From: a virus
Lineage: Duplodnaviria; Heunggongvirae; Uroviricota; Caudoviricetes
Direction: 5' to 3' (one strand)
Virus record (IMG/VR): IMGVR_UViG_3300012007_000008
Coordinates: 64,001 to 128,000 of that record
DNA: 64,000 bases
Below are positions 1-64,000 of the stretch, in pieces. The notes under the pieces were generated by a model that ran no database searches, had not been told where the DNA came from, and saw only the letters and a list, made by a program, of their open reading frames with translations. A program made the translations under genes and the position numbers. How positions within the stretch are numbered: the first letter of the stretch is position 1; each line of letters begins with the position of its first letter.

Positions 1-1
1 C

Positions 2-247
2 ACGGGATCATATCAGATGTATGAAATGCATAATAATGTAGAGCTATATCAGCTTCATTCTTGTGTGATTAGGCATGATGTTATGCAGGCAAGAGTAGGT
101 CTGCAAGTTACTGGTTTTGGGATATTCTGTAAAATAGATTCTGACATTGTTGATTTCGTTATTAAGGGTGGCACTGATGTGATATAGATAAGAATTAGTA
201 ATAATTCAGTGTATAGAAGAACCAAGGTTGGGCTCAGTCAATTCTAA
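2..247 (+). other. Shufflon silent cassette, 5' end outside window
   Basis: Frame open from base 2 to TAA 245-247 apart from one TAG (185-187); abuts the next crossover site at 249, like the other cassettes. Confidence 0.6.
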
Positions 248-248
248 G

Positions 249-512
249 CTAAATTCCAGATTATTGTATACTCAATCACTAACTACCACTTCAAAGAGTA
301 TTGCCGCCGGAGGGACTGCTGATACAAGCGCCGACGCAGCGAAGTCTGGGTACACACCAATTGGGATTATTGGTTGGCAGAGCTTTTCTACATTCGTTTT
401 TATGTATAACTGTAGGCTCAATGGGAATACTGTAAATTGTGGGCTTCGCAATTATGCCTCGTCCCAACAGTCTGGCAGCATGATTATTACTGTGTTGTAT
501 AAAAAGAACTAA
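249..512 (+). other. Shufflon silent cassette (variable C-terminus LNSRLLYTQ...VLYKKN)
   Basis: Begins at CTAAATTCCAG (encodes LNS); no RBS/start of its own; TAA overlaps the next site. Confidence 0.85.
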
Positions 513-865
513 ATTCCAGAATAGATGGACTACTTACATGGATAGGCGCTTCCTGGAATGGATCATCAAGAAGTATTGGTGCTAATGTCCAAGAAATGGT
601 TTTGTCAATGACTATAAATGTGGGAGGTACCTATCTTCTAATAGGGCGATATACAGCAATAGCATACGGAAAGAGTGTAACTGTTACAGTAAAAGACAAC
701 GATAATATGATCATTTCAGATTGGGGATAGAGCGTAAAAGGGTTTGCTAAACTGGTAAACGTTAACTCTGGGCACATTCTACAGCTTATCGTTTCCTGTA
801 ATGAAGCATGGACTTTTTATCCTGACAATCGAAATAGCTGGCTTCATGCTATCCTGATCCGATAA
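509..865 (+). other. Shufflon silent cassette (LNSRIDGLL...HAILIR), one internal TAG
   Basis: Site at 509-519; frame open to TAA 863-865 with TAG at 728-730; missed by the ORF track. Confidence 0.8.
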
Positions 866-1155
866 ATTCCAGAATCACGACAGAATTCAACTCATTTTTC
901 CCAGAAAGGAAAACGGTAGAACTTAATAATAACTCATATGACATAAACAATTGTATAGACACGACGAAAGTATATTTTTGGAGTGTAAATGTACGACCAA
1001 TCAACGCACCGAGGGACGGTTGTACTATGTTCCCAGTAAAAACACATTGGGGGACGCTCCAAGTGGCAATATCTTATTCGAATTCTGCTACGATTTGTGT
1101 TAGGCATATATTTGTAGGCACTTGGGGAGATTGGAAAAGCGTTACTTTCAGTTAA
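862..1155 (+). other. Shufflon silent cassette, pyocin-knob-like (INSRITTEF...GTWGDWKSVTFS)
   Basis: Site ATAAATTCCAG at 862; open frame to TAA 1153-1155; C-terminal R...W..W pattern typical of phage fibre knob domains. Confidence 0.8.
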
Positions 1156-1526
1156 ATTCCAGAATAACCGAGGAATGTTCCAGCATAAATAACAGAAATA
1201 GCGATTTATATACACGAAACATATATCACGATGGACGTAAGAATTTAAGAATAGTATCAAGTATCGGCACATCGACATCTTATTCAAGACAGCCTTTTTT
1301 TATATTTTCTGTGGCTGGTGGTGCACCTTGGGGAGCAATCATGAGAATATCTACAGAGGATAAGTCATCAAGTACAGCCTACACAAATATATGTAATAAT
1401 GTTATAACTACCGCATCCACAGCCTCTGAAAATGGGAAAGTTGTTGGAATATTTACTGTCGGAGGAAGGTATGATACGAGCATAATACTTAGTAATAGAC
1501 CTTTTTTGGTTAGCGCAACAAATTAA
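1152..1526 (+). other. Shufflon silent cassette (LNSRITEEC...FLVSATN)
   Basis: Site TTAAATTCCAG at 1152 in frame with ORF 1122..1526. Confidence 0.85.
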
Positions 1527-1780
1527 ATTCCAGTAAACAAATGATGCTAAAATCAAAAGACGTTACAATTGGTGACATTGTAATGTCGCAATCTGGATAC
1601 TTCAATATCGCCGGATACAAGCCACAAGGTATGAATCATTTTTTATTTGCCATTTTATGGACTTACGGGGACGACAGCAAACATGGAGCTTTAGGCGTAA
1701 ATGCAAACGGAAACTTTGTTTTTTCTACGGCAGGAGGAACCCTGTCATATGTCACCATAAGGTACTTCTATTACGATTGA
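1523..1780 (+). other. Shufflon silent cassette (LNSSKQMML...IRYFYYD)
   Basis: Site at 1523 in frame with ORF 1541..1780; C-terminus similar to cassette 3297..3824. Confidence 0.85.
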
Positions 1781-1869
1781 TCTGAATTGGGATTTAGTTC
1801 ACAAACCCGCCATTTCTGGGCACAATCCTCCCTTGAGCAATAGAATTGGATATACAATTAATACAATTC

Positions 1870-2871: not shown

Positions 2872-2924
2872 GGCTTTTCCTCCTTCTTCTGGATGATCGC
2901 GAGAGCGGCAGCATTGTCTACACA

Positions 2925-2933
2925 ATTATACCA
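2925..2933 (-). promoter_or_regulatory. Extended -10 promoter of recombinase (TGGTATAAT)
   Basis: TGnTATAAT consensus ~55 bp upstream of the ATG; no clear -35. Confidence 0.5.
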
Positions 2934-5906: not shown

Positions 5907-8609
5907 TTATGAAGCAGTAGTATATCTTTCATTATTCGGCAGAGCCGCCTGACTTGTCAGCGTTTCCAGTGTTTCGCTTACGTAACCAACAACCAAGGTC
6001 AGGTCAATCATAGGCTTTGTATGCGCCCTGAACTCGATAAGCGAAGCACCGGACTCTACGTCTTTAAGTTTGCAGTATTCGATATCGTTGTCATACGTGA
6101 TCGCGTAGTTGACGACTAACGCGGTTCCTGTGTTGGGTGCTTCAGTAATCGTGAAAGTAGTCCCGGAGAAGCTATATGTGCCTGAGCTGACCGACACGCC
6201 GCCCCTTGTCACTGAAGTGATACTTGTCGGGGCGTGTGAAAGCGTAAAGGTCTTTGTGGAACCATCGCCCGTGAACGTGTCTGTGTAGTTATACGTAGTG
6301 GTGGAATCCGCCATGCTTCCTTCAAGCTTGACGCTCACAATTTCAGTCGCCGCCGTGATGTCGTTTCCGGTCGTGATAGCTTGCCTGTATGTGGTCGCGT
6401 TGCCGTTCATGGTATCCCGGTATGCATTACTCCATCCTGAAGTTGACAACGTGATTTTCTTATAAGCAATCCTCTTATGGACGCCGGAAGACTTTACTAC
6501 CTTATCAGATCCCGAAGTCGGGGTAGTATCTATGCTGCCGTAGCCAGTACCTCCGCGGGCTACAGACAGAACCCCGGAAGTAATGTCGCCCGTGCCATGA
6601 GTATGAGAACTGAGCGTCGTATTGATCGTGACGTTGCCGTCAAGTGAAGTAGATACCGAACCGGTAACGCCGCCGTTCGCCCCTGAAGCAACAGCGAGGG
6701 CGATAGTCCTGGCGGATGTCAACTTAGCGGCTGAGCCTACGGCAAGGTTAGACTGCGCAGTCCAAGTAGGAGCCGCGTTTGTACCGCCTGAAGTAAGGAC
6801 AGCGCCGGATGATCCTGGCGAAAGGGCAGAGATCGCATTTGTTCCGCCACCGTACAGGACACCGTTTGCCGTGAGAGTAGTGGCACCTGTTCCGCCGTGT
6901 CCTACTCCTAACGTTCCGGTAATCGGAATCGTTTTCGCATCAGCACTTCCGTTAAACTCTAATCCGGTCGTAGAAGCGGTTCCAAGCGTGACAAGAAGGT
7001 GTATGGTGCTTGCCAGAGATGATGCTTTTCCGGCCGTGAGACTGGAAGGATCAGTCCATGACGGAGCCGCCGATGATCCACCTCCGGTCAGAATAAATCC
7101 GGCGCTTCCGGCGGATGTAACGCCTAAAGCACTTTCTGCGTTACCGTAAACGATTCCGTACTTCGTCAGGGTTGTCTTGCCCGTACCGCCGTGTCCGACG
7201 CCAAGAGTCCCAGTAATAGGAATAGTCGGATGAGAAGCATCTGAACCATCAAGATTCTTTGATCCGTCGAAGGAAGTCTTATTGCTATTCGATGATACGT
7301 TGGCAAGACCGACAACAAGTGACCTTCCGGTAGCCAATTTGTCCGTCGACCCGGCTTTACCGCTGTATGCCGTAATCGCTTTCGGGATACCGTTCTCGAA
7401 ATAAACGGGAACGTTTGTTGATCCGGCATCCGTGTTCAGTTTGTTCGCCGATGTAGCCGCACCTCCGGCTGAAGATGACCCGGCATAGCTATGCGTGTGG
7501 TTTGCCGTTGTAGCCAAAGATACGTTGGCGGAACCATCGAATTCCACTGAGCCTGTAACCGCGCCGGTGAGCGAAATCGTGACAGCACTATTGAGTTTAC
7601 TCGCGGATCCCGCGTTGCCCGAGATTGTAGTCTGAAGCGGATGGACATGGTCTGATCTTGCGACCGTAGAAGCCGATCCTGCGGAAGCTGTCCCGTTTGC
7701 TTTAGGGGCGGTTGTGCTATATGATACGTGAGTACCGTGGCTTGACGCCGCCGCTCCTATATTAGCAGGAGTGATATTGATTTCTACGGCTTCAGATCCG
7801 TCGTAATCGTCAAGTTTTGTCCCGTTCCCTTTGATTGTCAGAGCATTAGGATTCGGCAAAGTGGTATACTTCGTGTCAACCGCTGAAATGACGATGTTAC
7901 CAGAAGCATCCGTCGTAACCGAAGCATTGGTTCCGCCTGAAATCTTGTGAGACGACCGGACTGCGCTATTCTATATTACATTCAGGAATACCGAGCCGTT
8001 AGAAAGAGCGGTTGTGGTTTGCGTCGTACCGGTTGCCGAATTGGTTGTAATATTCTTCGCTGTATGATGAGTATCAGTAAATACCGCATTTGACGGAACT
8101 GTTTTATTGAGTTCATAAGTGCAAGCCGCAGGTTTCCCGCCTGTAAAATATACAGGTTGAGTCGCTGTTCCGGCTGTCGCTGTATCCAGTTTAACAGCAC
8201 TGGTCGCCGATCCCCCTGAAGACGAAGCCCCGGCGTAACTGTGCGTATGGTTGCCAAGCGCGACAGTTGAGGACGACGTTCCGGTTCCCATGTACGCGGC
8301 GGCACCAAGACCTTTTACGGAAACATTAGTTCCGGCGATTTTTACTTGGCCGTTGCTATCGCCGGTCGCCAGGTCTATTCCGTGAGTATGATCCTGACGG
8401 GCATAATTTGTCGAACTTCCTTGAGACGAAGACGAGGCGACTTTCCCAGGGGCTGCCGTCGCCGCAGTATATTTTGTGTCAGTAAACACAGCGTTCGAAG
8501 GAACTGATTTCTCTACGGTAAAACCGTTGATAGTTCCCACTAAATTGCCGTAAAGGTTATTCAGAAACCTCGCCGCACCTGTCACGATCAAATTTCCTAA
8601 TTGAGCGAT
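5907..8609 (-). CDS. Tail fibre protein 2 (~900 aa)
   Basis: ORFs 7971..8591 and 5907..7859 joined by one TAG; G/S/T/A-rich, HxH and GGTG fibre motifs; shares modules with the giant fibre. Start uncertain (ATC 8609 or TTG 8591). Confidence 0.85.
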
Positions 8610-9337: not shown

Positions 9338-11212
9338 TTAAACTTCATTAAACTAATACGCCATAAGCGTTCCGTTGTCTGCCAGTGATGCCGAAGTATG
9401 GTAGAGTTCGAGGACGTCGTCGGGGGAGAGGGCGGTGGCGTAGATTCTGAAGTCAGAATAGTCGTTATTGTTTCTTCGCCAAGCGCCTCCAGCTTTTGAA
9501 AACCCGAGAATGACTGATGTGAAACTTGCTAAAGCCGTTGCTGATGAAAAAGATACGGTATTTTGTAAGACGCCGTTTCTATAAGACTTGGCGTTTTGCC
9601 CGTCATAAGAAAATACGTAGTGGCACCAAGTGTTTTGGAGGAAGGTTATCAGCAACCTTAAATGAGTGTTTGCGGAGGAATTATTAATGTCCACACCGCT
9701 ATCCCGATGATTCATAGCCGACGTTTGATAATCACTTCCTGTATTATCTCCTGTATTATTTGTTGTACAGAATTGTCCTTGGACTGTTGTTGCACCACCA
9801 TACCCTTCCGGCCTCGCGTAGCACCAGAAAGCTATAGTTAACTGATCAGGAGTAGTTAGAGCAACGTTTCCGCGAATATATGCCGTTCCCGCCTTCTGAC
9901 TAACGGTTGAATTGGCACTATGAACATTCGTTGCATAACTATAACGAGGAGAATTTTGAATAGTGCTGATCGAAGCCGTATCATCAACTTTATATAGTTC
10001 ACCGTTGTATCCGAAACCACTTGTGTCATAAATAGTAGTCCGATCTGTCAAAAACGGATCTGAACATATTTCTTTGCCATTTTCCAAATATGCTTCTGAG
10101 AAGTAAACCTTATATCCTGGTTTAACATAAAATCCGATTAAATCATTATTTCCATCCTGCATTACACCTTCTGCTTTACACCAATAGAATCCATTTCCAA
10201 GAGGGGTAATAGAAGTCCATGAGTTATTTGGAACACCACCGCTTCTATTATTCCATGTAGCGTAAACAACATCGTTCGTAATTTCTATTCCGTTCTCTTC
10301 TTTACAGATGCACTGAACGCTACGATAACCACCTCCATAATCAGGACTTTGATAAAGCAGATAATTATATGTTGCACCAGCACCATTAGCAACCCAATGG
10401 CAATATGTTTGATTTGGTCTAAATATATAATTCTTATCAGTTGACTGCCCATATGTTCCAATGTGACCAGATCCACCCCAATGATTCCAACCACCTCCGG
10501 CAACATTTGTATCAAACGTCGGATATGAATACGCGTTATTCATTGCTGTAATATTCTCATTCAACGGATAATGCAACACCAACCCTTTTGATATTTCCTT
10601 TACCTCACGAGGAGAGAGGGCGTGATCGTAGATGCGGAAGTCGTTAATGTACATCTTGGCATTATATGAGCCACCAGTACAACGACCTATGTATAATTTC
10701 GTATCTGTAGTGATGTTCCTTATTGACGGGACAGAAGATAATTCATAACGAGTACCGTTGATATAGAAACACCCTTTCTTTGTATCGTTGCTATCACGAA
10801 CCATTACCAGATGTATCCACTTGTCATACACAATACTATCTACGGCTGTAGCCATCCAAATTTCTGTAGCACCACTTCCATCTGCCGTACTCCACAAGAA
10901 TTTTTTTTGGCTGTAGTTCCAGTAGATGCCGAATCCAGATGACGCTGCCGCCGTAGTCTTACTAGTACAAATTGCATAATATGAACCACCTGTCATGGTT
11001 GGTATTTTTAACCACATTGAAATAGAAAAATCAGAAGTCCCGATAGCAGTAGAATATGTGGTAGCCATATAGTCATCACTGCCATCAAAATAATAGCACG
11101 ACCCGATCTTTCCAGATGTATTCACCGTAGCACCATTATTGGTGACAGTAACATCAGCTAACCCTTGTTGATTCAAATTCCCATTCAGCGGCAACCAAAT
11201 CTGAAGAGCCAT
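9338..11212 (-). CDS. Tail protein with two LamG/concanavalin-A-like domains
   Basis: WLPLNGN, W.H...V, INDFRIYDHALS and SDFRIYATALS motifs; TAG at 9353 followed by FNEV-TAA. Confidence 0.8.
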
Positions 11213-11214
11213 AC

Positions 11215-11322
11215 TCAACCACCCCCTTTCCGAATAGCGGAGGGATAGGGAACCCCCACAAATTCAACTGTCGTAAACACAGGTTTGCGAGAGTTCCCGT
11301 ATTTCATTTGTCCATTTTTCAT
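11215..11322 (-). CDS. Small 35-aa ORF
   Basis: AGGAGG plus ATG; its TGA abuts the LamG gene start. Confidence 0.4.
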   Translation of the reverse strand: MKNGQMKYGNSRKPVFTTVEFVGVPYPSAIRKGGG

Positions 11323-11340: not shown

Positions 11341-14300
11341 TTATGCAAATATGAAGTCCAGAGACTTTGTCGTACTATTATACTGCATCGTTACAGCACC
11401 TCCACCGACCTGAACGCTCTTAGTCGTCAGGACACCGCTCGTAGTATACACTTCGTTATCCGAATACGTCTTCTGAGCGGATGACGTCTGAGACGCAGCG
11501 CCGATCAGGAAAATCTTACTGGAAGTATCTGCCGACTGAGCAGTAAGTTCGGCACCGGCGGCGGCGTAAGCAGTAGATGCTGTGTACGCGGCACTTCCAA
11601 GACCCTTAACCGACACATTGGTTCCGGCAATTTTAACCTGACCATTGGAGTCGCCAGTAGCAAGAGTAATGTTATGAGTATGATCGCCCCTTGCGAAGTT
11701 TGCATTTGATCCCGCGCTTGCGGTAGTGGAAATAGCAGTGGGTGTTCCAGTGTATGCCGCATCCTTGGTTGCTGTGGTCGCCACAGTAATATTTCCTGAA
11801 GAATCAGATACAACTGTTACTAAACCAGTTCCCACGATCTTATGGGCTGATCTGACTGCGCTGTTCTCTATCAAATTCAGATAGACATTTCCATTGGTAG
11901 CCGCCGCGTTCGCCGTAGCGGTCGCAGATGCTCCAATGATATTTTTCGCAGTATGGTGCGTATCCGTAAATACGGCATCGGACGGAACCGTCTTATTTAA
12001 GCTATAAGTGCAAGCCGTGGGTTTCCCTCCTGAGAAGTATACGGGTTGAGTCGCAGATCCTGCCGTGGCGGTGTCTAGTTTGACTGCGCTGGTAGCCGAC
12101 CCTCCTGCCGAAGAAGAACCAGCGTATGAATGGGTATGACCCGCAGCAGCATAAGCAGTAGACGCGGTGTAAGCCGCACTCCCGAGCCCCTTAACTGCAA
12201 CCTCTTCAACCGTACCGTTCGTATTAACAGAGATCGTTCCGTTCGTACTTCCTGTATCGATAGATCTAACACCAGTATTAGTAACTGTATTGCCTGTGAT
12301 GTCGATGCCTGTTCCACCGGAGTATTTAGTGTCTGTATCCGTGGATGAAATGATGATGTTGCCGGATGTATCGGTCGTTACTGTTGTCGCACCAGACCCC
12401 GAGATTTTATGAGAAGATCTGACCGCGCTATTCTCTATTACGTTCAGGAATACTGATCCATTGGAGATGGCGGTTGTCGTCTGGGTTGTACCGTTTGCTG
12501 TACTGGTCGTAATAAGTTTCGCCTGATGATGGGTGTCCGTGAATACAGCGTTTGAAGGTACTGTCTTATTGAGTTCATAGGTACAAGCTATCGGTTTACC
12601 ACCGGAGAAGTAAATGGGCTTCGTAGCCGATCCCGCATCGGAATCTAACTTAACAGCGGAATTTGCCGAACCTCCAGCGGTAGAAGACCCCGCGTACTGA
12701 TGGGTATGAGTTGAGGGCGGGAAAGAGCTTGGCTTTCCTGTAATACCAGACCAAGGTGCAGAAGAAGCAGTCCCGGCCGTATATTCCCTATAACCAAGCT
12801 CATTATCCAGGTTTGCCGTATCAACAACCCTATACATAACGCCAGTGTCTTCAAGCTGTACAGTATCACCTAATTGGACATCAGAAGTGGTAAGCTTGTA
12901 CATCGCAGCCAGATTTGCGACCGAGATAAGCCTCTCAAGAGCGGCTACCGGGATTCTCGCAATGTCTAACACGCCAGAAGAAATTTCCGAAGCATCATGA
13001 CTATGCGTCTTAGGTGCAACAGGATCAGTAATCCCGTATCCAGCCAGTGTAGTCGGATGATTCGTAATATTTGACCACGGATGAGTATGGCTTGAAGCAG
13101 CCGCGCCAATAGAGGCGGGCGTGATATTGATCTCTACCGCTTCGCTACCATTATAATCGTCAAGCTTTGTCCCATTCCCTTTGATCGTCAGTGTATAGGG
13201 GTTAGGAAGGTTAGTATACTTCGTATCCACTGCCGAAATGACAATATTACCGGACGCGTCTGTCATAACGGATACATTATCACCGCCTGAAATTTTATGA
13301 GAAGATCTGATAGCGTTATTCTCTATTACATTAAGGAACACTGATCCGTTAGAAAGTGCTGTCGTAGTTTGAGTCGCGCTACTCGCGGTATTAGTCGTGA
13401 TGAGCTTCGCCGTATGGTGAGTATCCGTGAATACAGCGTTAGAAGGGACTGTTTTATTCAGCGAATAGGTACAAGCTTCAGGTTTCCCGCCAGTGAAGTA
13501 TACAGGTTGAGTTGCAGAGCCAGCCGTAGTAGTGTCTAACTTAACAGCCGATGTTGCTGATCCGCCAACTGTTGAAGATCCTGCATATTTATGGGTATGA
13601 TCCGCCGTTGCATAATCGGAAGAGTCGGTATATGCCGCAGATCCAAGGCCATAGACGGATACGTTCGCTTCCGTTCCGTTGGTATTGACTTTAATCGTGC
13701 CGTTAGTTGTTCCCGTGGCAATCGCCCGAACGCCGGAGTTTGTGAAGTTCGTTCCCGTCAGCGTAATACCGTTAGAACCGGTATATTTCGTATCTGTGTT
13801 TGTGGATGAAATAATAATATTACCGGACGCATTCGTTGTTACAGTAGTCGCACCGGATCCGGTAATCTGATGCGTGGAACGAACAGAACCGTTTTCTATC
13901 AGATTCAAGAATACTTCACCGTTGGAAAGAACTTCAGATGTATCAGCGGTACCGCTATCAGAATCAGTAACTACATTCTTCGCTGTGTGATGCGTATCTG
14001 TAAATACGGCATCAGAAGGTACTGTTTTGTTCAGGGAATAAGTACATGCTACTGGTTTTCCACCTGAGAAGTATACAGGTTGGGTAGCTGTCCCGGCCGT
14101 GGTGGTATCCAGTTTAACAGCGCTGGTAGCCGACCCTCCTGAAGATGAAGCGCCAGCGTATGAGTGAGTATGGCTTGCCGTTGCATAAGCAGAAGAGTTT
14201 GTATAGGCCGCGCTCCCGAGTCCTTTCACAGCGATATCTTCAACAGTACCATTCGTATTGACAGAAATTGTACCGTTTGTGCTTCCTGTGTCGATAGCCC

Positions 14301-17300
14301 TGACGCCTGTATTGGTGACTGTAGTACCCGTAATATTGATTCCTGTCCCGGCCGAGTATTTTGTATCTGAATCGGTGGATGAGATTACAATATTGCCGGA
14401 TGCATCTGTGGTTACAGTTGTTGCGCCTGACCCTGAAATCTTATGTGATGACCTGACCGCATTATTCTCTATTACATTAAGGAATACCGAACCGTTAGAG
14501 AGGGCAGTTGAAGTCTGAGTCGTCCCAGATGCCGTATTAGCCGTGATAACTTTTGCTTGATGGTGTGTATCAGTAAACACGGCGTTCGAAGGAACCGTCT
14601 TGTTAAGCTCGTAAGTACAGGCTTCAGGTTTTCCTCCTGTGAAATACACCGGCTGAGTTGCAGAACCGGCTGTTGTCGTATCCAGTTTGACCGCGGATGT
14701 CGCTGAGCCTCCCGAAGATGCGGAACCTGCATACGAGTGTGTGTGTCCTGCCGTTGCGTAAGCAGAGGAATCTGTATAAGCGGCACTTCCGAGTCCCTTT
14801 ACGGCGACGTTTTCAGTTGTTCCATTCGTATTGACAGAGACTGTCCCGTTTTTGCTTCCTGTAGAAACAGCCCGAACACCAGTATTAGTAACCGTTGTAC
14901 CCGTAATATCGATCCCTGTTCCGGCTGAATACTTAGTATCCGAATCCGTTGATGAGATTACGATATTACCAGATGCGTCGGTGGTGACTGTTGTCGCACC
15001 GGATCCTGAGATCTTATGCGCAGACCTGACCGTACCATCCTCTATCAGGTTCAGGAATACTGAGCCGTTGCTAAGTGCCTCGTCTGTATCTACTACATCC
15101 GTATTAGCCCCGGTGACCACATTCTTTGCAGTGTAATGAGTGTCCGTAAACACAGCATTGGCAGGAACTGTAGCATTCAGATAGTAAGTAGTGGCTACAG
15201 GTTTTCCTCCTGAGAAATAGACTGGCTGGGTCTCGGAACCGGCAGAAGAGGTGTCTAACTTAACAGCAGACGTAGCTGATCCACCAGCGGTCGAAGATCC
15301 TGCATATTTATGAGTGTGATCTGATTTTGAGAAATATGTATCTGCTTTGTAGGCAGCGGTTCCTAATCCGTGAACGGATACACTGGCAACCGTTCCTCCG
15401 GTATTAACGGAGATCGCGCCATTAGTGCTACCCTATGCAATAGAAAGCACGCCGGTATTGCTGAATTCAGTTCCTGTGAGTTCAAGTCCCGTTCCGGCTG
15501 TATATTTTGTATCGTTGTCTGTCGAAGAAATGATAATATTGCCTGACGTGTCTGTTTTAACTGTTGTAGCGCCGGATCCGCTTATTTTGTGACTCGAACG
15601 TACTGTTCCGTTCTCTACCAGATTCAGATAAACGTTTCCATTAGCTAGAGCAGTACTTGTATTTGAAGTCGCAGTTGTTCCACCCACAACGTTCTTCGCC
15701 TGATGATGCGTATCTGTAAACACAGCATTTGCTGGGACGGAAGCACCTAATGAATAGGTAGTAGCTACCGGTTTGCCTCCTGAGAAATACACGGGTTGCG
15801 TCGTTGATCCGGCATCAGAGTCCAGCTTAACAGCTGAATTTGCTGAACCTCCGGCAGTGGATGATCCTGCATATTGATGAGTATGAGCCGAAGGCGGGAA
15901 AGTACTCGGTTTTCCGGTGATCCCAGACCAAGGCGCGGACGAAGCCGTACCGGCAGTGTATTCTTTATAGCCCAACTCATTGTTCAGGTTGTTTGTATCT
16001 ACAACCCTATACATGACACCAGTATCCTCAAGCTGTACGGTATCACCCAACTGAACTTCAGAAGTAGTAAGTCTATACATTGCAGCTAGATTCGCTACGG
16101 AAATAAGCCTTTCAAGTGCAGCCACAGGGATTCTTGCGATATCGAATACTCCAGACTGGATTTCAGAGGCGTCGTGAATATGTGTCTTTGATGCGAGTTG
16201 ATCAGTAATCCCGTACCCGGCTAATGTCGTCGGATGGTTCGTAATATCTGCCCAAGGATGAGTGTGGCTCGAAGCGGCGGCCCCTATATTGGAAGGTGTG
16301 ATATTGATTTCTACCGCTTCCGTACCGTTGTAATCATCAAGCTTTGTTCCGTTTCCTTTAATCGTCAACGCATAAGGATTGGGTAAGGAGGTATACTTTG
16401 TGTCTGTTGCTGAAATAACAATATTGCCAGAAGCGTCTGTTGTAACCGACGCGTTGTCTCCTCCCGAAATTTTGTGAGAAGACCTGACGGTATTGTTTTC
16501 TATCACGTTCAAGAATACCTACCCGTTAGAAAGTGCACTGGAAGCCTGGGTTTTACCACTTGCCGAATTGGTCGTGATAACTTTTGCGGTGTGGTGCGTA
16601 TCGGTGAACACTGCGTTAGAAGGAACAGACTTCTAAATAGAATAACTTATTGCCGTAGGTTTGCCGTTCGTAAAGTATACCGGCGTAGTTGCAGATCCGG
16701 CAGACTCGGTGTCCAGCTTGGCTGCTGAAGTAGCGGAGCCTCCTGAAGTAGATGCTCCGGCATATGGATGCGTATGATCAGCTTCTGCTTTCTCCGCAAG
16801 GGCATCATACACGCCTCCGGATGTGACCATCTTAGTCGAATTCTCTATTGGCGAAGAATCCACGGATGAGTTTCCGGTACCGCCATGAGCGACATCTATT
16901 ACCCCGACATCTACCGCTTTGGAGCCATTATATGTCTTTCCGTTGATAGATAGGCTATACGGGTTCGGAAGGGATGTGTACTTGGTATCTTCAGACGTGA
17001 CAATGATATTTCCTGAAGAATCCGTTGTTACGGTAGTCGCACCTGACCCTGAGATAGTATGTGACGAAACGACCGCGCCATTTTCTACGTGGTTGACAAA
17101 CACATGCGTATTCGCCAGTGCTGTAGAAGTGTCTACGGTAGCTTCGTTTGTACCGCCGACAATTGTCTTACTGGCATAATGAGTATCAGTAAATACAGCG
17201 TTAGCAGGTACGGAAGCCTCAAGAGTATATGATGTAGCCGTTGGTTTTCCACCGGAGAAGTATACGGGCTGAGTGAGTGATCCCGCGTTTGAATCAAGTT

Positions 17301-49400: not shown

Positions 49401-52400
49401 ATTATTACCCTTAGCTTCAGAAAACATCATTCTTTGTATCTATGCTTTGGCTCTAGACACATCGTCTGTGTCCATTACTCGGACGACATTTTTCATTCCA
49501 CTTAGCTACTTCTGAGCTTTTTTTACAAATGTAGACCTGTCCATTTCGTTACGGGCATATTTGACCGAGTAATCCTTGATTGATTTTGATGCCGCCTTTA
49601 CTTGATCCTAAAGCCCAATTACATTTCTGCTTTGTATTTCGGATAATAACTAATTAACGTGAGCAATGGCAGGATCGGTTTGTAATTTATTCCTGGCTTC
49701 ATTTAACAGTTTTTCTTTTTCTGGCCTTTGTTTCTAAATCCGTTCATTAGCTTCCCGCAGTCTTTCCTGTGCGTTAATAATAGACTCCGTGTTGTCTTCA
49801 GCCCCATCTAAAGCTTGTTTATAGGCACCAATAGCTTTCGTACAATCATCAAAACTTTTACTTAATTTTATTAGTTCGGTCTATTCTTTACTGGTGATAA
49901 CACCAGTTTCCGATTTCATAACCAAATCCTAATATTTCTATTGGTTCTTTGCCATGTAATTGTAGTCAGTAACAGCACCCTAACGAAGTCTTTTTATGTT
50001 CTAAGGTAGTTTCTATGAGATTGTGTCTTCTTTTATAGATTGTCTATACATATTTATAGCTTGTTCTTGAATCTCGCGGATCTAATCCTGAAACCACCCA
50101 TTATCATTCCTATATCTGTCTTTCTAGCTTCCTATAGTAAACGCACTTAGGTCATCACTCATCTGCTAATTCATGTATTTTATATAGTTCTGCAACAAAG
50201 ATCGTTTTAAGTTTGCAATTGTTTTTTCATCAATGCGTTCTGCATATAATCTTTCATTAGAAATTGCATTTTGAATGTCCCAAGTGTCTTCCTCAAGTTG
50301 TTTGCGTTTATCGTCTGCATACTATTCTGCGCTTCTTGGTTTATTGCGATACCCGTCTTCGACTGTTAACGGCTATTCATGGTTTTCTACTTGCTGATTA
50401 TCTGCCTAGGAATTAGCAGATTCGGCAGCCTTTTTCATCGATTCAGATAAGAGATCAATTGATGAGGATAATTCTGTGGCTCCAGCAGTGGCCCCGTCAA
50501 ACGAATCAAAAATACCCTACATAGAATCTAGTATCTGATCCTAATCGATATCTACGTTCGTCTACAGTTTTGGACCTGGCGACTTGTTCTATCTCTATCC
50601 GAAAAGCTATTGCTCGATCCTATCGGAAACAGCTTCCTGTTGGTCTGCAATTATTCTCACGGAAGAAGATTCCTCAGCCTGAGACTATTTTATGTAATTA
50701 GAATATTGCTTTCGATATTTACTCTCACCATAGTTCTTGCCAGTTAATTGGTTAATTATATCTGCGACATCTTGCCATGTACCAATTTTAGATTTATCCT
50801 TAGCCACACGAAGGAGTAATTCATCGTCAGTCTCTCCGTCGAGACGTTCATAAGTTGGCTTTTGTTTTGATTTTTTAATCTATCCTGAAGTAGAAGAGCT
50901 GGTTTTTTTAGCGGGTGTCTCCAAAGTTTCGACCTATTCTTTTATTTTACTAGTCGTTTTTTCCTGTGATTGTGCCTATTCGTCCAACGACTGTTTGGCA
51001 TTTTTCGCTGCTTCCTAAACATTACTAAGACTTTCCCGCACTTCATTTAGTGTCTTATTGGTGAAGCTGAATTCATAAGCGTCTTCCTAAGTGGAAGTGA
51101 TGTCCCGCTCACTTACATCCCATCCAGCAGAACTTTTTTTGACTCGATATTTGTGGTCTTCCGTGTAATATTCCCCAGTACTTTTATCCTTTATTAGTTT
51201 GACTTTATTAGTTTTAGAAGCTGAAGGTTTATGTTGTTCAGTTTCTTTATCAGGCTCGTTTCCTCCGAATATACTGCCTAATCGTCCAGAAAGATCTGAA
51301 GACTGGACACCTGAAGGCCTCTATTCTTTAAGAGGATTACCATTTTTTGTTAACTATAGATCTATCTTTGATGCTGCACGAATCTACTCAAGAATATTTA
51401 ATACTTCATTGAGCCTAGATACAAGTTTATCAACAGAAGAGAGAAAATCATTCAATGATGGTTGAACAGAAGAGAGCTCTGATAAATCACGAATTCCAGT
51501 GAAAGTCTGATCAGTTAATGAACTTAGATTAAAATCTGACAATGCTTCGTATGTCGCGGCTCTGAGAATGTTTGCGTTTTTATTAGAAAATAGTGAAAAA
51601 TCTAGTGTTTTATTTTTTTCGTCTACCCCGCCTTTTGATTTTATATAATGTAGGGCAGCATCTTGAAGAGTATAATTATTTAAATCTTTAAGGCCCATTT
51701 GTTCATGTGCGTAATTAGCCCAATAAGCATTCTATTTCTATTTAGCATAAGAACCGATTCTTTGAATAATATTTGATAATTCTAAGTTAGGATCAGACGT
51801 CCCGTTTTTCTGTAAAAACGATTTAATGGCTGAAAAATCAAAATCAAGTATTTTTCCACCTGACTATATCAGCATTTTTGTAATGCCTTGTGCAGATATT
51901 CTAGACCATGCATCAAAATCTTCCTATGACGGAAGCAGGTCATATCCAATGGTTTTATAATCTATTCCATCCCCAAACGGATTAATAAATTCTCTCATTG
52001 GATGAGAGTGAACATCTGTATCAAAGTCAGACATTCTATAACCATTGTTTTTCATCCACTAAAAAATCTGATTAAAGTTAAATGAATCTCTCTGATCATA
52101 TAAAAACGGATTTGTCATCAACCCTGTTTTTGAATTAATAAATGCCCCGCGTTCCATAGACATTCCATTTCTGAATTTCTCTATGATTGTGTCGGACTAA
52201 CCCCAGTTTTTTAGAGTTTTATACATATTAGCAGAATTGTTATTTAAGCCAAGGGCAGATATTCGTGTTTCTAAAGACGAGAGTGTAGATTGGGCAACAT
52301 TCCCAACGTCAAGAATGCCGTTCTTTATGGATGTAATAACAGAACTCAAATCACTATTTATTGATCCTTCGGTTATGACTTTTGATGGCAAAGACTCTGA

Positions 52401-55400
52401 ATCATTATTGGCAACTTTGTTGTTTGCCAAATTCCATAATAAGTTTCCAGTTTTTATTTGTTTGTCATTGTTTAATAATAAAGAAAATTTATCATAAGAA
52501 AATCCGTATTCTGAATTGCCGGACAGTCTTTTTATTAGATCAATTGATTTTTGTTGATATGCGGTCTTAATGGACTAAATCTACGGAGAAGAAATGTCAA
52601 GACCGTCATAGTGGGAAAGACGGTTAATTGATTCTAATAAATCATTTTGTAATTGATTTTTAACTTCGTCAACAGCGGAATAATATATATAATCAAGACC
52701 CAAGCCTTCTCTAAAATCATAATCAGAGATATTTGCTTTTGACTTGAACTCAGGTGAAAAATAAAAATCTGATATCTCTTTGAAGTTCTATTCAGAAGAC
52801 TTTAGCGCAGATATTAACGAATCTCTATAGTTGTTAGCTAGTTCATATACCTGATTGTCCTCATAAAGATACGGAGCTTCATTATAATCTCCAATATCTT
52901 CTTTGTATTCCTTGGTTCTTAAAACTAACTGATCTATGTAATCCTATGCCCCAATAACTTTTTTGTCTAATCCCGCGCTTCGAACACTCAGAATCTCCTA
53001 TCCAATTTCCTGAGTAGTTTTTCTTGGGTATCTATTAATCCCAAGGATCATGTCACGCACATCACGAGATCCTAGATTCATTTCTTCCTGATTTTTAATA
53101 TCATCTTGACTTCTGCCTTTTGTATCTATAATAATATCTCCGGGTGCGATAATCTTATTAGGTTTGGAATCGGAAGTAATAATTGGGCCAGCGATTTCCT
53201 AGCCATTTCGCAATATCTTCTTTTGAATATCACTTTTTTGTGCCTATGACACATTAGAAACAACACGAGATAGTATTGAAGAAAGTTCGTTGAAACTTGA
53301 TCTTATTTGCTCAATGGCGGATCTTATAGCATTTGGTAGTTCTGTTCTGATGACATCTATAATAGATTTGAATTCTCCAGAAATGGCGGTTAAATCAGCT
53401 TTAGTTTCTTTCTTAGTTTCGGCAGACTATTTTTTCTATTGTGTTGGTTTTTGTTTTTTTAATGTGGGGTTTTTGGCTTCCTCTTTTTGTCTTTTAACTC
53501 TTGCCTCAGATATCTATTTTAGTTTTTCTTGTAATGATTGTTCTTCCTTCAAGATAGCATTATAATCGCCGTATGTTTGTATCATATATTCATCATATGC
53601 TTTGGCGCTAGAATAGATCCCTTCTTTTGCAGAAAATATTTGCTCATCGGTGAACCGTCTCTTGCCAGTCTAATCTTTAGCCATACGCAAGCTTTGGATA
53701 TAAGCAGCATCTCCACCCTATTTTGCGTATTTTGATCCTTTACCGGAAAACGGATTATTTATTTTTTGATCCTGCCATTTTTGAAACAACTAATCAGGAT
53801 TCATTCCGCGAAAATCTGGGTTTTGTATTTTTGCCCACAACGCTTTTTGGAATTCTCCGGCTTTTAAATACTTAGGATCGGAGAGTAAAGCCTTTGTTTC
53901 TTTTTCGAGATCATACAACTATTGTCTAGTGTAATCTTTTGTATTTATCTATTTGTTTAATATCTCTGCGATCTTCTGCTCTTTTTTAGCCAATGGAACT
54001 TCAGTGTATTCTTTGCGCGCAAGTTGATTATTTACAGAAGCTTGAGCCTCTGCATACATTTGTGCAATTACTGTTCCTTTTTGCTATGCTTCAGATAGTG
54101 CGTTAATTGCTGTTTGTACATTCCTCGCGGAGATTTCGTCAATCTGGCCACTCTATAAAGCTTCTTTTAGACTTATTTGATCTATTCCGCTTGTTTTCAT
54201 TTTTACAAGCTGCTATGCAAGTTCCGCATTGCTATTATATCTTATTGCAGATATGTTCTAATCCGTAGAATCCACTCCGATGGCTTGTAACATTTTTCTG
54301 GCGGGCAAGTCTCCTTGAAGTTGTCGAAAATTTGCATAAGCACTCGCTACTTGTTTAGCATTCTATACAATTTTGTCGTATGATTTAACGTCAAAAGCTA
54401 ATGATTTCTAAATATCCTAAGATACTTCTTCAACAGACTTTTCTTTTGGCTTAGTCAATCCTGAGAGACGATTTGTTATCTAAGACTATCTATTCCTTAA
54501 ATGAGCCTATCTGTCATGTTCCTAAACAAAATGGGATGTTACAGAATCAATAAACTAATCCTATCGTCTTTGTTCCTATTCTTGCTTTTTTTGTGCTTTA
54601 GCTTTCTATTCTTCCTGCCTATCTTTTTTTCTTTTCTATTGTTTTCTAGTTTCTTCTTTCGTTATTAATTGTCGATTTATAGGGTGTCTTCCTTTTAACG
54701 CTATAACCCTATTCATTGCGCCTTGAGTCTAACTGTTATTTGTGTCATTAAACATATCGAACGCGTCGAACACATTAGTTAGAATATCTATACCCTATTG
54801 GTCTAAATCTGGATCTCCATAAATACCCTATAGCGTTTTTCTTTTTCTAGAAAGCTTATATGAGAGAGTAGCAACATCATTTAGTTTACCCTCCCTATAG
54901 TTCCTAATATTTCTGTCTGCCTTATCTTTAGTGGACATATCAGCTCCAAGTTCTGTGTCTAGGAACTTTGAAAGCTACTAATCCGATGCGGACATAACAG
55001 TAGATAGCTATTCTTGGGCTTTCGATAATTCTCTTACTAATTTCTAAGTGTTTTTTAATTGATCTGAATACTACGATAAGCTCTTTTTATTTTCGTTTAC
55101 GCTCCGCTAGACATCCTAAGTTTGTTCAGTTTGCTTTTCCCTCGTCTGAGAGTGTTCTCTCATCCAAGCTGCTTCATTTTGCTTTCGCCTGTCTTTTTCG
55201 GCTTTATCCCATTCTTGAGCCGTTTGTTTCTGTTCCTGTTCAAGGTCCGAAAAATATTTATCCCACTATATTCGCATATCTCCTACATAGCGATGTGTGT
55301 TCTTTGGCAATTTCTTTTTCTCTCGTTGATTATCCTAATCTTCGTATGAGAACAAAATATCATCCTAATAAATATCACGTATTTCATTCTACATTTTCTA

Positions 55401-56549
55401 TGAGATCCTTGTTTGCCGTTTTATTCCGGATATTTTTTCTTCATGCGTTTCTCTGGCGCGAAGCTGCTATAAATCCTACACTAATTGAAGAGCCTTTGAT
55501 TTATACTATGGAGTATATAAATCATCTTCACTAGCGTTCTTATACTATGTTAGAGTCGAGATTATATCTTTTTCAAGCTGATCGAGTGATTTTACTTTTC
55601 CTTGATACTATTTACGTGTCTATAAATAGTCTTCTTCGTTTAAGGCCAATGCTTCCTACCGTGAATTAGCATTAATAACATATTTATCCTTGGAAACTAA
55701 AGAGCGGCGGTATTTCGCATCGGCTCGTCCTGCAAACTGCTACTCATCAGGTTCGTATAGTTTTCTGTTATCTTGCTACGGCTATGATGTTTTGTTGGAT
55801 GATTTTTTTGCCTCCTCCCAATATTTCTAACGATCTATTTTTTTCTTCTTTAGCATCTTATTTATTTCTTTATCAAATGCATCGTTTTCGGCTCCAAGAA
55901 GGGCAGAAATATCCATACCATTCTGGATAGCATCTCTTGCTAAGGAATACATATTCTTCATAGACCCAAAGGAGTTTTTCCATTGAACCTTATTTTTATC
56001 TGCATATTCCTCCATCCTTTTTGTTGTATCTTCATATATCATTTTGAACAGAGGCATATTACTTGTGCCATCCTCATTCTTTAGTACTTCGGCGAGATTG
56101 CGGGATCGAAGCAAGGCGGCTGCATCTTTTTTCCCAGTATTTGCTCCCCAAGCGTTCGCCCACGCAGTCGCCTACTCGGCGTAGTTCATAGCCGCGCCTT
56201 TATTTCCTTTTTCTGATTCCTACCTGTATTTTCGCATAGCTTCCCTAAGTGCTTCTAACTGTTTAACTTCATCTACGAGAAATTTGTTTGTTCCTCCACT
56301 TAAAGCACCGTTCAGGCCTTTTAATTGATCAACTGCTTTGTCGGCATCATTGGCCATGCCAAGGAGAGCAGCCGACATGTTATCAAGGCCAGTATTTTTC
56401 TTACCAATACTTTCAATTGTTTTTGTCAACTCTTTAAAAGATTTTTCGTCTTTCTCTGCTTGACTCTAGAGACTTTGCAGCGCAGAAAGGCCATTACTCA
56501 CATCTATATCAAATTTTATACTTATATTTTCTTGTCCACGTGCTCCCAT
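37488..56549 (-). CDS. Tape measure protein, ~6353 aa if uninterrupted
   Basis: ATG 56549 after GAGGTG; twelve track fragments share the frame; spot-checked gaps contain only TAG; TP901-type core at ~48200-49100; typical A.GT...E.G.E C-terminal motifs. Not every codon was checked. Confidence 0.8.
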
Positions 56550-57211: not shown

Positions 57212-57799
57212 TCATTCTTCGATTCCGGCCAGTACTTTTTGTATTTCTGGTGTTGTAATAAGATTTTTTATATCTTCAAAAGTGATTCCCATATTATTCA
57301 TAATTGGCTCAATGGATTCTCCAATGATCCTTCCGAGAGTATCGATTTTCTTTGATATCCATGAATCAATTTCGTATTCGTTCTTAAATGTGTCAGACTG
57401 AACCATATCGTATACCATTTTGAACTATTCGTATTCGGATTTTGGTATACGCTTAATCAATACAAGAATCAAACCGCTTTGATTTAACATATCATACTGA
57501 TTTGCGAAATCATCATTGACATTCAATACTTCAATATCCGTGTATGACTTGATTAAACTAAGTACAAAAAATAAATATCCATTAGGAGAGTCTATATGGA
57601 ATGATTTTCTTGTTGCGATTCCATTTTTATCTCTCGCTTCAACCCTATAATAACAAGCGTTCACTATACTATTACAAACCGCAATTTTCTATACATACGG
57701 AACATAATCGCGAACCATTCTTTCCTGAAGAAATTTTTCTTCACTTTCTCTTGCTTTGGAAGCAAACTTATATTGCCTTAAAAATTCTTCAACTTTCAT
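57212..57799 (-). CDS. Probable tail assembly chaperone (195 aa)
   Basis: ATGA overlap with the upstream gene; two track ORFs joined by TAG; position upstream of the tape measure. Confidence 0.65.
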
Positions 57800-58257
57800 A
57801 ATTTTTCCTTCTTTCCCTTTCTTTTCTACTTCATAAATTCATCCCAATTGACCCACTTTCCGCAATAATAACAGACCCACTCAAAATCTACATCAGGATA
57901 GTAGTAGTAGAATAGTTTTTTCTTAATTTTAGCGACCGGATCAATCAGATTACTTGCCCCTTTGACATCTTTTACTTCTATGCGCCCGTCCTTAAACTTC
58001 AGCCAGAAGTCCGCTACGTAATCAATCCGCCGGATTTTCTCGCCGTTATTGCGCTAAAACTTCGGAAGTAACTCATACCTTCTCTGAAGGTCGTAATCTA
58101 CGATCTATCCTTTCCTGAAGAGAGGAACTACGTATTCGTCGTAGTAACGTTTCTATGCGGCGGAATCGAACACAATTGTTTTTCCGGTATGTTCGTCGTG
58201 GACAGTCCGCGCCTTCTTTGCTTTTGGAGACATATCTACACCGTATTTGCTTCTCAT
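57796..58257 (-). CDS. DUF1064-like PD-(D/E)xK nuclease (153 aa, 4 TAG)
   Basis: FDSAA*KRYY, G*IVDYDLQ, YVADF, EVKDVKG motifs; absent from the ORF track. Confidence 0.8.
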
Positions 58258-60745: not shown

Positions 60746-60757
60746 AACTTATCCTCC

Positions 60758-61186: not shown

Positions 61187-61200
61187 CTGGATACACCTCC

Positions 61201-61437: not shown

Positions 61438-61486
61438 ATCCGATTATCCTCCTTTGTCCAGTTTTCCTGATTACTAATGCGAAAAA

Positions 61487-61528
61487 ATAGGGTCCCTCTA
61501 CTTATACCTAAAGTAGTAGGAACCCTAT
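61487..61528 (-). terminator. Terminator-like hairpin
   Basis: ATAGGG(T)TCC.../...GGACCCTAT stem followed by T6 on the minus strand. Confidence 0.55.
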
Positions 61529-61576
61529 AAATGTTTTTTATTTTTAACCGCGCCTTTAGTTGTCGGTTCATACACT

Positions 61577-61837
61577 TTAGATATTAATTTCCGAGGTCTC
61601 ATCGAGAGCCTTGATCTGAGTCTTAATACCTTCGTCGAATTTCTCTAACCCAGAAAGATCGAGCGTTCCGAGCAACTCCTTCTTCTCACCATCCGACATA
61701 GAAGAGGACATTACCTCGAAAATATCGTGGCAATTCTGAGAATCAAAAATTGCTTTCCAGCTCGGAGTTTCGGGATTACAGCCTTTGCAATATTCGTAGA
61801 CTTTTCCGCATACAAGACATTTTCTCTTCGTAATCAT
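61577..61837 (-). CDS. Hypothetical protein with CxxC...CxxC
   Basis: AGGAGG RBS; clean ORF downstream of the major tail gene. Confidence 0.75.
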   Translation of the reverse strand: MITKRKCLVCGKVYEYCKGCNPETPSWKAIFDSQNCHDIFEVMSSSMSDGEKKELLGTLDLSGLEKFDEGIKTQIKALDETSEINI

Positions 61838-61915
61838 TCCTTGTCCTCCTTAAAATAGAATAGAGGGGCAGAGGAACTTCCTCTTAACCCCTCAGAAAGT
61901 CAGGTTAGATTACGA

Positions 61916-62719
61916 TCAAACCTTCTCCTGCTCGATGTCGTCGTCCGCCCAAGTCAGGATGTACAGAGCTTTGTCGTCGGAGCAGTAGTCAACCTGCGCA
62001 TCACCAGTGAAGTCAAAGGTGCTGTCGGTCGTAAGCTCGAAGCTTACCTCAGGAGACGGCTGGAAGGACGGGAACTGTACGTACAGAGCCTTAAGTTCTC
62101 CCAGGTGGCACGGATCGACGGCGAGGCACTTAAGGGTGAGCTTCACCGTGCTCGGAAAGTCGTCCGCAGAGTTGACAACCTTCATACCGTTGGTCACAGT
62201 ACGATCATAAGAGATCAGGTACTTCGTAACATCGGCATCTGGGGTTGTCGGCGGCACAAACTTGTCATCGGTGATGCAGAACTGCTTCGCAGCCGCAGCG
62301 GAACCCAGCTTGTAGGTCTCGACGATAGAGTTGTTGTTGTTGACACCGGCAACAGAGATTGTACCCTCAACCAGACCAGTGAGATCCAGCTCAGCACCCT
62401 TCTTCAGGATGACGATCTTCGGAGCAGTGAATGCGCTCTGAGCATCAGAAGCGATGGTCTTAGCATTATCACCGGACTGACCCGCGATGGTGTTCAAATC
62501 GAGCAGGGCGTTCGTCGCCGAGAAGCTGGCGGCCTTACTCTGGTAAAAGCGCTTGATGAGCGTCCCGTTAGCGTCAACAGCGTCACGGGTATCCGCGGTC
62601 GTGTCGATGGTAGCGGTATTCAGCTGCGTAAGGGTATACAGAAGAGAGTCATCAACAAGAGACTCAGCGATCGCAATCTGGATGCGATCGACAACCACAC
62701 CGTTTAGGTTAAAAGCCAT
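61916..62719 (-). CDS. Major tail (tube) protein (267 aa)
   Basis: AGGAGG plus ATG 62719 (MAFNLNG); strongly biased codon usage, no TAG; position in the tail module. Confidence 0.75.
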   Translation of the reverse strand: MAFNLNGVVVDRIQIAIAESLVDDSLLYTLTQLNTATIDTTADTRDAVDANGTLIKRFYQSKAASFSATNALLDLNTIAGQSGDNAKTIASDAQSAFTAPKIVILKKGAELDLTGLVEGTISVAGVNNNNSIVETYKLGSAAAAKQFCITDDKFVPPTTPDADVTKYLISYDRTVTNGMKVVNSADDFPSTVKLTLKCLAVDPCHLGELKALYVQFPSFQPSPEVSFELTTDSTFDFTGDAQVDYCSDDKALYILTWADDDIEQEKV

Positions 62720-62796
62720 AATAAATACCTCCTTTTCCGTGATAGATTTGTGCAAAATAAATAAAGAGCCGATTGCTCGGCTCTTACAGATCTGGA

Positions 62797-63567
62797 TCAG
62801 ATTTCTCTGAACCAGTTCAGTTCTTTTGATGTGTCTATTTTCGAAGTATCCAAGAATCCTGAATACATTCCTTGCATCAGGGATTCCGTGGATTTCCAGA
62901 CTTGAAATCTCGACACGTATTCCATGAATTCGACGATATTGCACTACTTCAGTTCTGACTTCTTATACTTGAAGCCAGGTGTAATCAACATCGTAGAAAT
63001 CAGGGAAAATAAATAGGAAGAAGATTCCTTCTCCTTCCCCATACGAACCATTCTCTGATGGTTCCGAATATTCATGCGGTCTCCATCGATGATCGCAAGT
63101 TTTGTCTGCTTACCACGCGCTTTCTATAACTTCGGATACTGATTCAGCGCCATGCGGATGTACTCACGCATCATGATATATGTCGCCTTATCTATAAGCG
63201 TATCCGTAACGGGATCATAGAGAACATGCTCCTAAGTATCCTTTCTCATCATCAACTGAAGGTTGGTGAAATCGTACCGCCCGAAGACAATACAAGATAT
63301 TTCAGGTGGAACTGAAGGGATGAGCATACAGAAGAGGTCAAAATCATCAATCTCGTTCCAATCAACACCTAGATCCCAGAGCTGAAGTCTGTGTGTGGTG
63401 GGATTGCCGACGAATGGCGCGACGGCCTCGAAGAAATATTTTTCCCCGAAGTCAACGATGTCGCCCACTGAACATTCGTAGATAGTAATAGATTCGTTTA
63501 TGACATAGTTCTCCCCGAAGAACATTTTCAGCTTGTCATAACCACAATCAATAGGCGGCTCAGTCAT
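62797..63567 (-). CDS. Conserved hypothetical virion-module protein (256 aa, 3 TAG)
   Basis: Track ORF 63232..63567 continues through TAGs to TGA 62797. Confidence 0.7.
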
Positions 63568-63569
63568 AC

Positions 63570-64000
63570 TTAGTCAAACCGCACTTTGTTGACAACATCC
63601 CCCAGATTCGAGTAACCATTCGGGGTCGTTTGCTCGAAGATCAGAGTGCGGAGGACGTATTTATTACTATCCACCGCATAGGGTCTGTTACCCACAATAT
63701 GAACCTGAAAACCAAAATCATTAGACCAGTCGAACTCGTCCTAGATCAAAGCAGCGATCAGGTCGTGCCTCGCGATCCCGGTTTCGCGGTCGTAAATATT
63801 CTTAGGATCAGCCAGAATATAGAAGATAATCTGTTGATACTTCTGAGTCGCGTTATACCGCGGCTGTTCTGTCATCGATGTCTCGAAACAGATGAAATTC
63901 TGAGCCTGAGTCTTGACTTCAGGAAGGACGAAGTACGGAATAATATACTTACCCACGTAAGCATCCGGGTCGTCATCGGGGTCAAGGTCTGGCGCATCAA
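63570..64000 (-). CDS. Tail completion/terminator-like protein, 5' end outside window
   Basis: Open frame with one TAG at 63741; TAA at 63570 abutting the next ATG. Confidence 0.6.

Follow-up and report, generated by a model that had tools for sequence, protein, structure and literature searches.

The codon TAG is a sense codon in a tailed phage of which 64,000 nucleotides were analyzed, and the residue that is selected at the TAG positions is, as judged from homologous DNA, glutamate (Glu). The analyzed stretch, called the window in the following, comprises bases 64,001-128,000 of the 174,862-bp phage record IMGVR_UViG_3300012007_000008, which is 88%-complete. The phage very probably uses a code with UAG = Glu and with UAA and UGA as stops, and a phage-encoded tRNA(CUA) is the predicted decoder. 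A preliminary description, made from the letters of the window, had proposed that TAG means Glu and not glutamine (Gln). This interpretation is supported by voting of alignment columns, by a positive control with related phages, by an invariant Glu in a nuclease, and by the Glu-type architecture of the suppressor tRNA.

TAG in the reading frames of the phage

With the standard code the long minus-strand genes of the window are broken, and reading through TAG joins them, resulting in 33 genes. These contain 254 in-frame TAGs in 20,840 codons, and in-frame TAG is found in 18 of the 19 genes with at least 150 aa. All 33 genes end with TAA (20) or TGA (13), and the same two stops terminate 210 of 210 genes genome-wide; the exclusive TAA/TGA ends are partly given by construction, because TAG was set as sense in gene calling. 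The counts bear out the earlier statement that in-frame TAGs split most long genes and that genes end with TAA or TGA. In addition, 13 individual TAG sites had been quoted with their peptide contexts, and all 13 were found at the given coordinates and in these contexts as CTA on the plus strand, i.e., as TAG in the frame of the minus strand. The alternative two frames of the window genes carry 343-804 TAA or TGA each, and thus the long frames free of TAA and TGA are real. TAA is absent from the gene frames, so that TAG alone is sense.

TAG is concentrated in the late structural block on the minus strand and in homing endonucleases, and it is rare in the remaining genome (302 TAGs in 26,216 codons of the late block versus 88 in 28,138 codons elsewhere). 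The phage thus combines the features by which amber recoding is recognized, i.e., many in-frame TAGs in intact genes, ends with TAA and TGA only, an own tRNA(CUA), and enrichment in late genes. In at most seven genes genome-wide TAG is located within the final 1-5 codons and TAA or TGA follows shortly after; the example in the window is TAG 9353-9355. This arrangement looks like tandem stops that are functional under both codes.

One could also suspect that GAG was turned into TAG by errors of assembly or base calling, or that the genes are pseudogenes. The only point in favor is the oddity of 183 stops in a single gene. The genome encodes a matching tRNA(CUA), TAG positions recur in G001, L015 and L016, which were assembled independently, contigs that are 95-99% alike were recovered in runs of other studies, and TAA and TGA are absent from the very same frames. 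The probability of an artefact is practically nil.

Residues opposite TAG in this phage and its relatives

Protein databases are unusable for the distinction of Glu and Gln, since the proteins of recoded contigs have been deposited with Q in place of TAG. Database homologues of the endonuclease with 12 TAGs (Table 1), one near-identical and one 62% identical, display Q at the TAG positions, but both are flagged 'translates with_TAG=Q', and their DNA carries TAG there. The source contig is stored likewise. These Qs would seem to favor code 15, i.e., TAG = Gln via a tRNA-Gln-derived suppressor that is charged by the glutaminyl-tRNA synthetase (GlnRS) of the host, but they are table-15 translations of TAG codons and thus no evidence.

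Therefore, column voting was performed with DNA only. All proteins, masked with X at the TAG positions, served as tblastn queries, and the homologous codon was then determined for every TAG. The relatives were MT835469, MT837385 and MT835887 from INPHARED, as well as 16 loci and five whole records (G001-G005) from IMG/VR. Their number is small, and some of them are related among themselves; each site had one vote, and subsets were retested. At 134 TAG sites genome-wide, 66 of them in the window, the opposite residues were E (34.5%), D (10.4%), K (8.3%), N (6.7%), and Q (4.4%). As a reference, true-Glu columns of the same alignments had 42.3% E, 11.8% D, 10.1% K, and 4.6% Q, and true-Gln columns had 35.4% Q. 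Glu was ahead of Gln by a log-likelihood gap of 55.3 natural-log units. Restricting the test to the 66 window sites left a gap of 29.5, and omission of the nearest relative one of 35.0; for well-aligned neighborhoods it was 66. At 54 sites the majority residue was E, at 5 sites it was Q. Several conserved TAG columns were all-E, including 49080 and, apart from one GAT codon, 49101, and no Q-conserved column was found among the conserved TAG columns in the DNA-level comparison. TAG is thus not located on Gln columns, as it would be under code 15.

The individual sites for which Glu had been claimed gave the same picture. The first example is the VI*FDG motif of the endonuclease (TAG 36385-36387). 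The column contains E in 118 of 118 nuclease homologues, and at the DNA level the opposite codon is GAG in L015 and GAA in both G003 and MT835469. In the DUF1064 protein, site 58153 faces GAG and GAA, and site 58105 faces GAA as well as TAG in G001. In the tape-measure core five homologues each were available; they have GAG, GAG, GAA, GAA and GAG opposite 49080, and four GAA and one GAT opposite 49101. Only GAA was found opposite 35023 (G001 and G003), 23092 (G003 and G004), and 9353 (G003). The last example was site 28197, which had been described as often Q in homologues. Only one homologue was found, in G003, and its codon at this site is GAC (Asp). Homologues were thus available for nine of the 13 quoted sites, and eight of these face GAA or GAG with the exceptions mentioned. 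For the whole tape-measure gene, 26 TAG sites had homologous codons, with 29% E, 17% D and 0% Q as opposite residues, and Glu was the best fit.

The description had also pointed to paralogues within the window, and these comparisons could be reproduced. YTALXGK (19429) is opposite YTALEGK (twice) and YAALEGK in internal repeats of the giant fiber, NVIXNSAV (7971) is opposite NVIENSAV, with E in 12 of 13 alignments to the giant-fiber repeats, and YSIXKSVP (16633) is opposite FTVEKSVP. The remaining internal matches were scattered, and thus paralogues alone would not settle E versus Q.

As a control, each relative in turn served as the query of the same script. This phage gave E (Q at -53), and so did G001 (Q at -44), the nearest relative, which has 81% identity in a polymerase-like gene. 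In contrast, Q was obtained for G003 (E at -56), G004 (E at -86) and G002. Standard code was found for G005 and MT835469. The calling of Gln in three relatives and of Glu in G001 indicates that the pipeline separates the two residues, and it argues against code 15 for this phage. It also follows that both meanings of TAG coexist in one phage group.

Codon exchanges and codon usage were analyzed as well. Normalized per codon, exchange to TAG in G001 was 2.8% for GAG and 1.9% for GAA of the query, versus 0.8% for CAG. In G004 the values were 2.1% for CAG and 2.3% for CAA, versus 0.5% for GAG. With G001, 33 of 109 TAG positions are in common. GAG usage is 2.83% in TAG-free genes versus 1.80% in TAG-bearing genes, and CAG usage is 1.83% versus 1.77%. 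The frequency of TAG in the latter genes is 0.92%; the drop of GAG is thus about equal to the TAG frequency, and CAG is not depleted.

The recoded relatives that vote Gln are G002 (L066-L067), G003 (L042-L049) and G004 (L050-L060). They resemble this phage in being TAG-recoded, in the YonO-like RNA polymerase (52-57% identity), the giant tape measure, the portal and further proteins, and in having related prophage-like copies in Lachnospiraceae genomes. They differ in that their TAG columns vote Gln, and their TAG positions are hardly shared with this phage (0 of 64 for G003, 1 of 52 for G004). The suppressor of G002 is also unlike that of this phage, i.e., it is Gln-like with a weak A1-U72 pair, G2-C71 and G73. 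ARAGORN detected no CUA tRNA in G003 or G004.

The suppressor tRNA and its proposed charging

The tRNA(CUA) gene is located at genome position c[141,111-141,183], about 13 kb outside the window, and was detected by ARAGORN and with Rfam RF00005 (57.5 bits). It is one of four tRNA genes of the genome and adjoins the phage tRNA-Gln(UUG). The features of the tRNA were compared with a reference set of 242 tRNAs of 14 isotypes from about 60 Lachnospiraceae genomes. A 4-nt variable loop (no nucleotide 47), A73, and G2·U71 are each present in 22 of 22 tRNA-Glu, and the combination occurs in none of the 13 other isotypes. All three are present in the phage suppressor, which has up to six of seven acceptor pairs in common with tRNA-Glu and at most three of seven with tRNA-Gln. 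All 25 host tRNA-Gln have a 5-nt variable loop, G73, U1-A72, G2-C71 and G3-C70, and the suppressor lacks every one of these features. The suppressor of G001, with an overall identity of only 68.5%, also has A73 and the 4-nt loop, and just one of its seven acceptor pairs differs; the suppressor of the metagenome contig L189 has the same acceptor stem and A73. The acceptor stem was thus kept in both, though the remaining tRNA differs.

Next, covariance models were built from host tRNA-Glu and tRNA-Gln. The suppressor of this phage scored 54.7 bits with the Glu model and 52.1 bits with the Gln model. The respective values were 54.4 and 39.9 bits for the G001 suppressor and 55.1 and 51.8 bits for the L189 suppressor. 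The controls gave 54.5 and 36.0 bits for the phage tRNA-Glu(UUC) and 34.8 and 71.9 bits for the tRNA-Gln(UUG) of this phage. With the Glu model the suppressor therefore scores about as high as a genuine phage tRNA-Glu. A BLAST search of the suppressor against a host genome yielded no useful match. Taken together, the tRNA comparison supports Glu via discrete determinants, but only weakly via overall similarity.

The L189 suppressor lies on the contig Ga0247610_10006810 (L189:5303-5375, plus strand) and is 85% identical to that of this phage. In a metagenome scan with a loose suppressor pattern, one of the 120 matches listed was real, namely L189, and 119 were chance matches. L189 seems to be TAG-recoded and has no detectable protein in common with this phage. 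A TAG-rich open reading frame of 411 aa on L189 has just two database homologues, and P0122, which is 97% identical to a protein of L189, is located on a 135-kb contig.

Several observations weigh against a clean Glu assignment. The 1:72 pair of the suppressor is C-G, flipped from the G-C of tRNA-Glu, and it is the sole difference in the acceptor pairs. The anticodon is CUA and not UUC, and thus the tRNA-Glu combination of G1-C72 and UUC is not present. The covariance margin of Glu over Gln is just 2.6 bits (14.5 bits for G001), and a cruder ranking with profile hidden Markov models placed Gln (19.9 bits) above Glu (7.5 bits). This isotype ranking was ambiguous and was replaced by the feature counts and covariance models. 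CAG replaces TAG in a few cases in near relatives; G001 has 6 such exchanges among 76 non-TAG codons, and L016 has one. The glutamyl-tRNA synthetase (GluRS) of E. coli recognizes the anticodon, and GlnRS mischarges part of the tRNA-Glu(CUA) when this is used as a suppressor. GlnRS is present in the hosts, and thus some Gln may be inserted. The residue was read from selection, i.e., from evolutionary constraint, and partial insertion of Gln or Lys may occur.

Some of these observations are also what code 15 would lead one to expect. It is the sole amber reassignment published for phages, GlnRS is available in the hosts, the suppressor adjoins a tRNA-Gln gene and reaches 52.1 bits with the Gln model, and the profile ranking has Gln in first place. 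Yet Q is found at 4.4% opposite TAG compared with 35% at true Gln columns, Gln is 55 units worse, 118 of 118 homologues have Glu at one TAG position, and the determinants common to 25 of 25 host tRNA-Gln are missing from the suppressor. TAG = Gln is thus very improbable for this phage.

An ambiguous decoding was also considered, in which mostly Glu is inserted together with a substantial share of Gln, with GlnRS accepting CUA-like anticodons, or of Lys, and in which mixtures are tolerated at most surface positions. Normanly, Kleina, Abelson and Miller reportedly observed in 1990 that E. coli tRNA-Glu(CUA) was partly mischarged by GlnRS and that several A73/U35 suppressors were mischarged by the lysyl-tRNA synthetase. 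This mischarging, the small margin of the suppressor tRNA, and the TAG to CAG exchanges would fit such a mixture. However, the residue profile opposite TAG is close to that of true-Glu columns with no surplus of Q or K, an invariant Glu and all-E columns are among the positions encoded by TAG, and the acceptor stem lacks any acceptor determinant of GlnRS. Ambiguous decoding therefore appears unlikely.

Under the Glu reading, UAG would be decoded by the phage-encoded tRNA(CUA), and the suppressor would be charged by the host GluRS. Neither a class-Ic aminoacyl-tRNA synthetase nor a PCRF domain of release factors was found in the 88%-complete phage record. The hosts are likely Lachnospiraceae: prophage-like relatives are present in one complete Lachnospiraceae genome and in metagenome-assembled genomes, and distant relatives infect Enterocloster. 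GlnRS was found in five of five hosts, and there is one GluRS. The host genes glnS and gatB, which were the genes looked at for the host code, have no internal stops. Escape from GatCAB transamidation was set aside as a mechanism because the hosts have a true GlnRS. From the identity rules of E. coli, the flipped C1-G72 pair together with A73 might keep the host GlnRS off. The code switch may gate the translation of late genes until the suppressor tRNA has been made, as has been proposed for phages with TAG = Gln.

Genomic context, known codes and implications

The TAG-bearing genes of the window that are discussed above are compiled in Table 1.

Table 1. Genes and sites of the window with in-frame TAG (window coordinates).
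Feature	Position	Strand	In-frame TAG	Remarks
Tape-measure gene	37488..56549	-	183	6353 codons, zero TAA/TGA
Tape-measure core, motif VT*FDTALT*MRKV	49080-49082, 49101-49103	-	2	five homologues each
Homing-type endonuclease	36205..37416	-	12	PHROG 559; Vsr/DUF559-like C-terminal domain
Tail-fiber protein	31180..35403	-	10, incl. 35023, 31348	1407 aa; Peptidase_S74 chaperone domain
Tail or fiber protein	23712..31163	-	5, incl. 28197	2483 aa
Giant fiber protein	11341..23223	-	7, incl. 19429, 16633, 23092	3960 aa, repeat-rich
Fiber paralogue	5907..8591	-	1 (7971-7973)	894 aa
DUF1064 protein	57796..58257	-	4, incl. 58153, 58105	153 aa; Pfam PF06356, E = 3e-22
626-aa protein	9338..11218	-	9353-9355	TAG five codons ahead of TAA stop

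The TAGs of the tape-measure gene are unevenly spread: the first 4500 codons contain 177 of them, and the final 1850 codons contain 6. Per 500 codons, there are about 20 TAGs in the first part (43000-56549) and almost none in the second (37488-43000). The TAG-poor part has a higher GC content and a higher use of CAG, and it matches the standard-code phage MT835469. The step in TAG density may be a mosaic join. Searches of IMG/VR and INPHARED with peptide patterns or megablast revealed no relatives of the tape-measure core, and the N-terminal 2400 aa had no more than two short matches in five related records. Contigs of four runs were 95-99% alike to the tape-measure gene, with 1438 differences. 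For the window region 46000-52000, contigs that are 95-99% alike were found in sheep and goat gut metagenomes of several independent studies, and thus ruminant guts appear to be the habitat of the phage lineage. Exact protein look-up for strain contigs returned the source contig only. The endonuclease with 12 TAGs has four paralogue matches in MT835469. PDB sequence searches with the lysin and the endonuclease yielded nothing informative.

Two further loci lie outside the window, both on the minus strand. The first (L008:5667-8387, genome 145,667-148,387) encodes a protein of 906 aa with 12 TAGs that belongs to PHROG 8308, which is annotated as RNA polymerase in an Enterocloster phage. It is probably a YonO-type polymerase. 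The gene has a length of 3.0-3.8 kb in several relatives, which suggests insertions. Its neighbors match the Pfam families YonB, YomW, YomU_Tube and YonJ_N, and thus the phage is SPbeta-like. At the second locus (L005:8176-11000, genome 136,176-139,000) a large-terminase-like gene with 8 TAGs adjoins a LAGLIDADG homing endonuclease gene with 3 TAGs.

TAG-recoded gut phages with code 15 are well documented and include crAss-like phages, Lak, Garnet/Topaz and phAss-1 (Borges et al., preprint 10.1101/2021.08.26.457843; Peters et al., PMC9523058; PMC10607447). In one survey, phages with a code unlike that of their host showed only TAG to Gln and TGA to Trp. The phage described here shares with the code-15 phages the concentration of TAG in late and structural genes, the stops TAA and TGA only, and a phage tRNA(CUA) without an own synthetase; its hosts presumably use the standard code, as do those of the code-15 phages. 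It differs in that the residue is Glu and not Gln, and in that the suppressor has an acceptor stem, variable loop and discriminator of the tRNA-Glu type. Outside phages, TAA and TAG both mean Glu in the NCBI tables 30 (peritrich ciliates) and 31 (Blastocrithidia). There, as presumably here, UAG is read as Glu by a suppressor derived from tRNA-Glu. However, these codes are eukaryotic nuclear codes in which UAA is also reassigned, whereas UAA is the commonest stop of this phage (129 of 210 genes). In addition, it is the virus that carries the change in the present case, and its host presumably keeps the standard code. The preliminary description had stated that no phage report of TAG alone meaning Glu was known, and full-text literature searches likewise found no published Glu reassignment in phages. 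Late-gene amber recoding with a phage suppressor is thus already known with the meaning Gln, and the meaning Glu appears to be new, because all phage reports that were read concern Gln and tables 30 and 31 also reassign UAA.

We consider it likely that UAG = Glu is a genuine, unpublished code of bacterial viruses. It would have originated within an SPbeta-like group of phages of Lachnospiraceae, in a single branch whose sister branches use UAG = Gln or the standard code, with a suppressor derived from tRNA-Glu in which C1-G72 and A73 make a substrate for GluRS that is rejected by GlnRS. The same suppressor type is present in the unrelated and apparently recoded contig L189, and thus the code may spread by tRNA transfer.

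The published rule is that phage amber recoding concerns Gln only, and this has been explained by a special susceptibility of GlnRS; a Glu code would mean that a second synthetase can be hijacked. It would also mean that a codon can differ in meaning between close phage relatives, and it would show the speed with which codes diverge. With TAG = Glu, public databases mistranslate the proteins of such phages: gene callers with table 15 put Q at every TAG, which would give 183 wrong residues in the tape measure and would turn a conserved, likely catalytic Glu of the nuclease into Gln, and proteomics searches based on these translations would miss the TAG peptides. Lastly, genetic-code engineering might make use of such a natural amber suppressor, by which Glu would be inserted and which would escape GlnRS.

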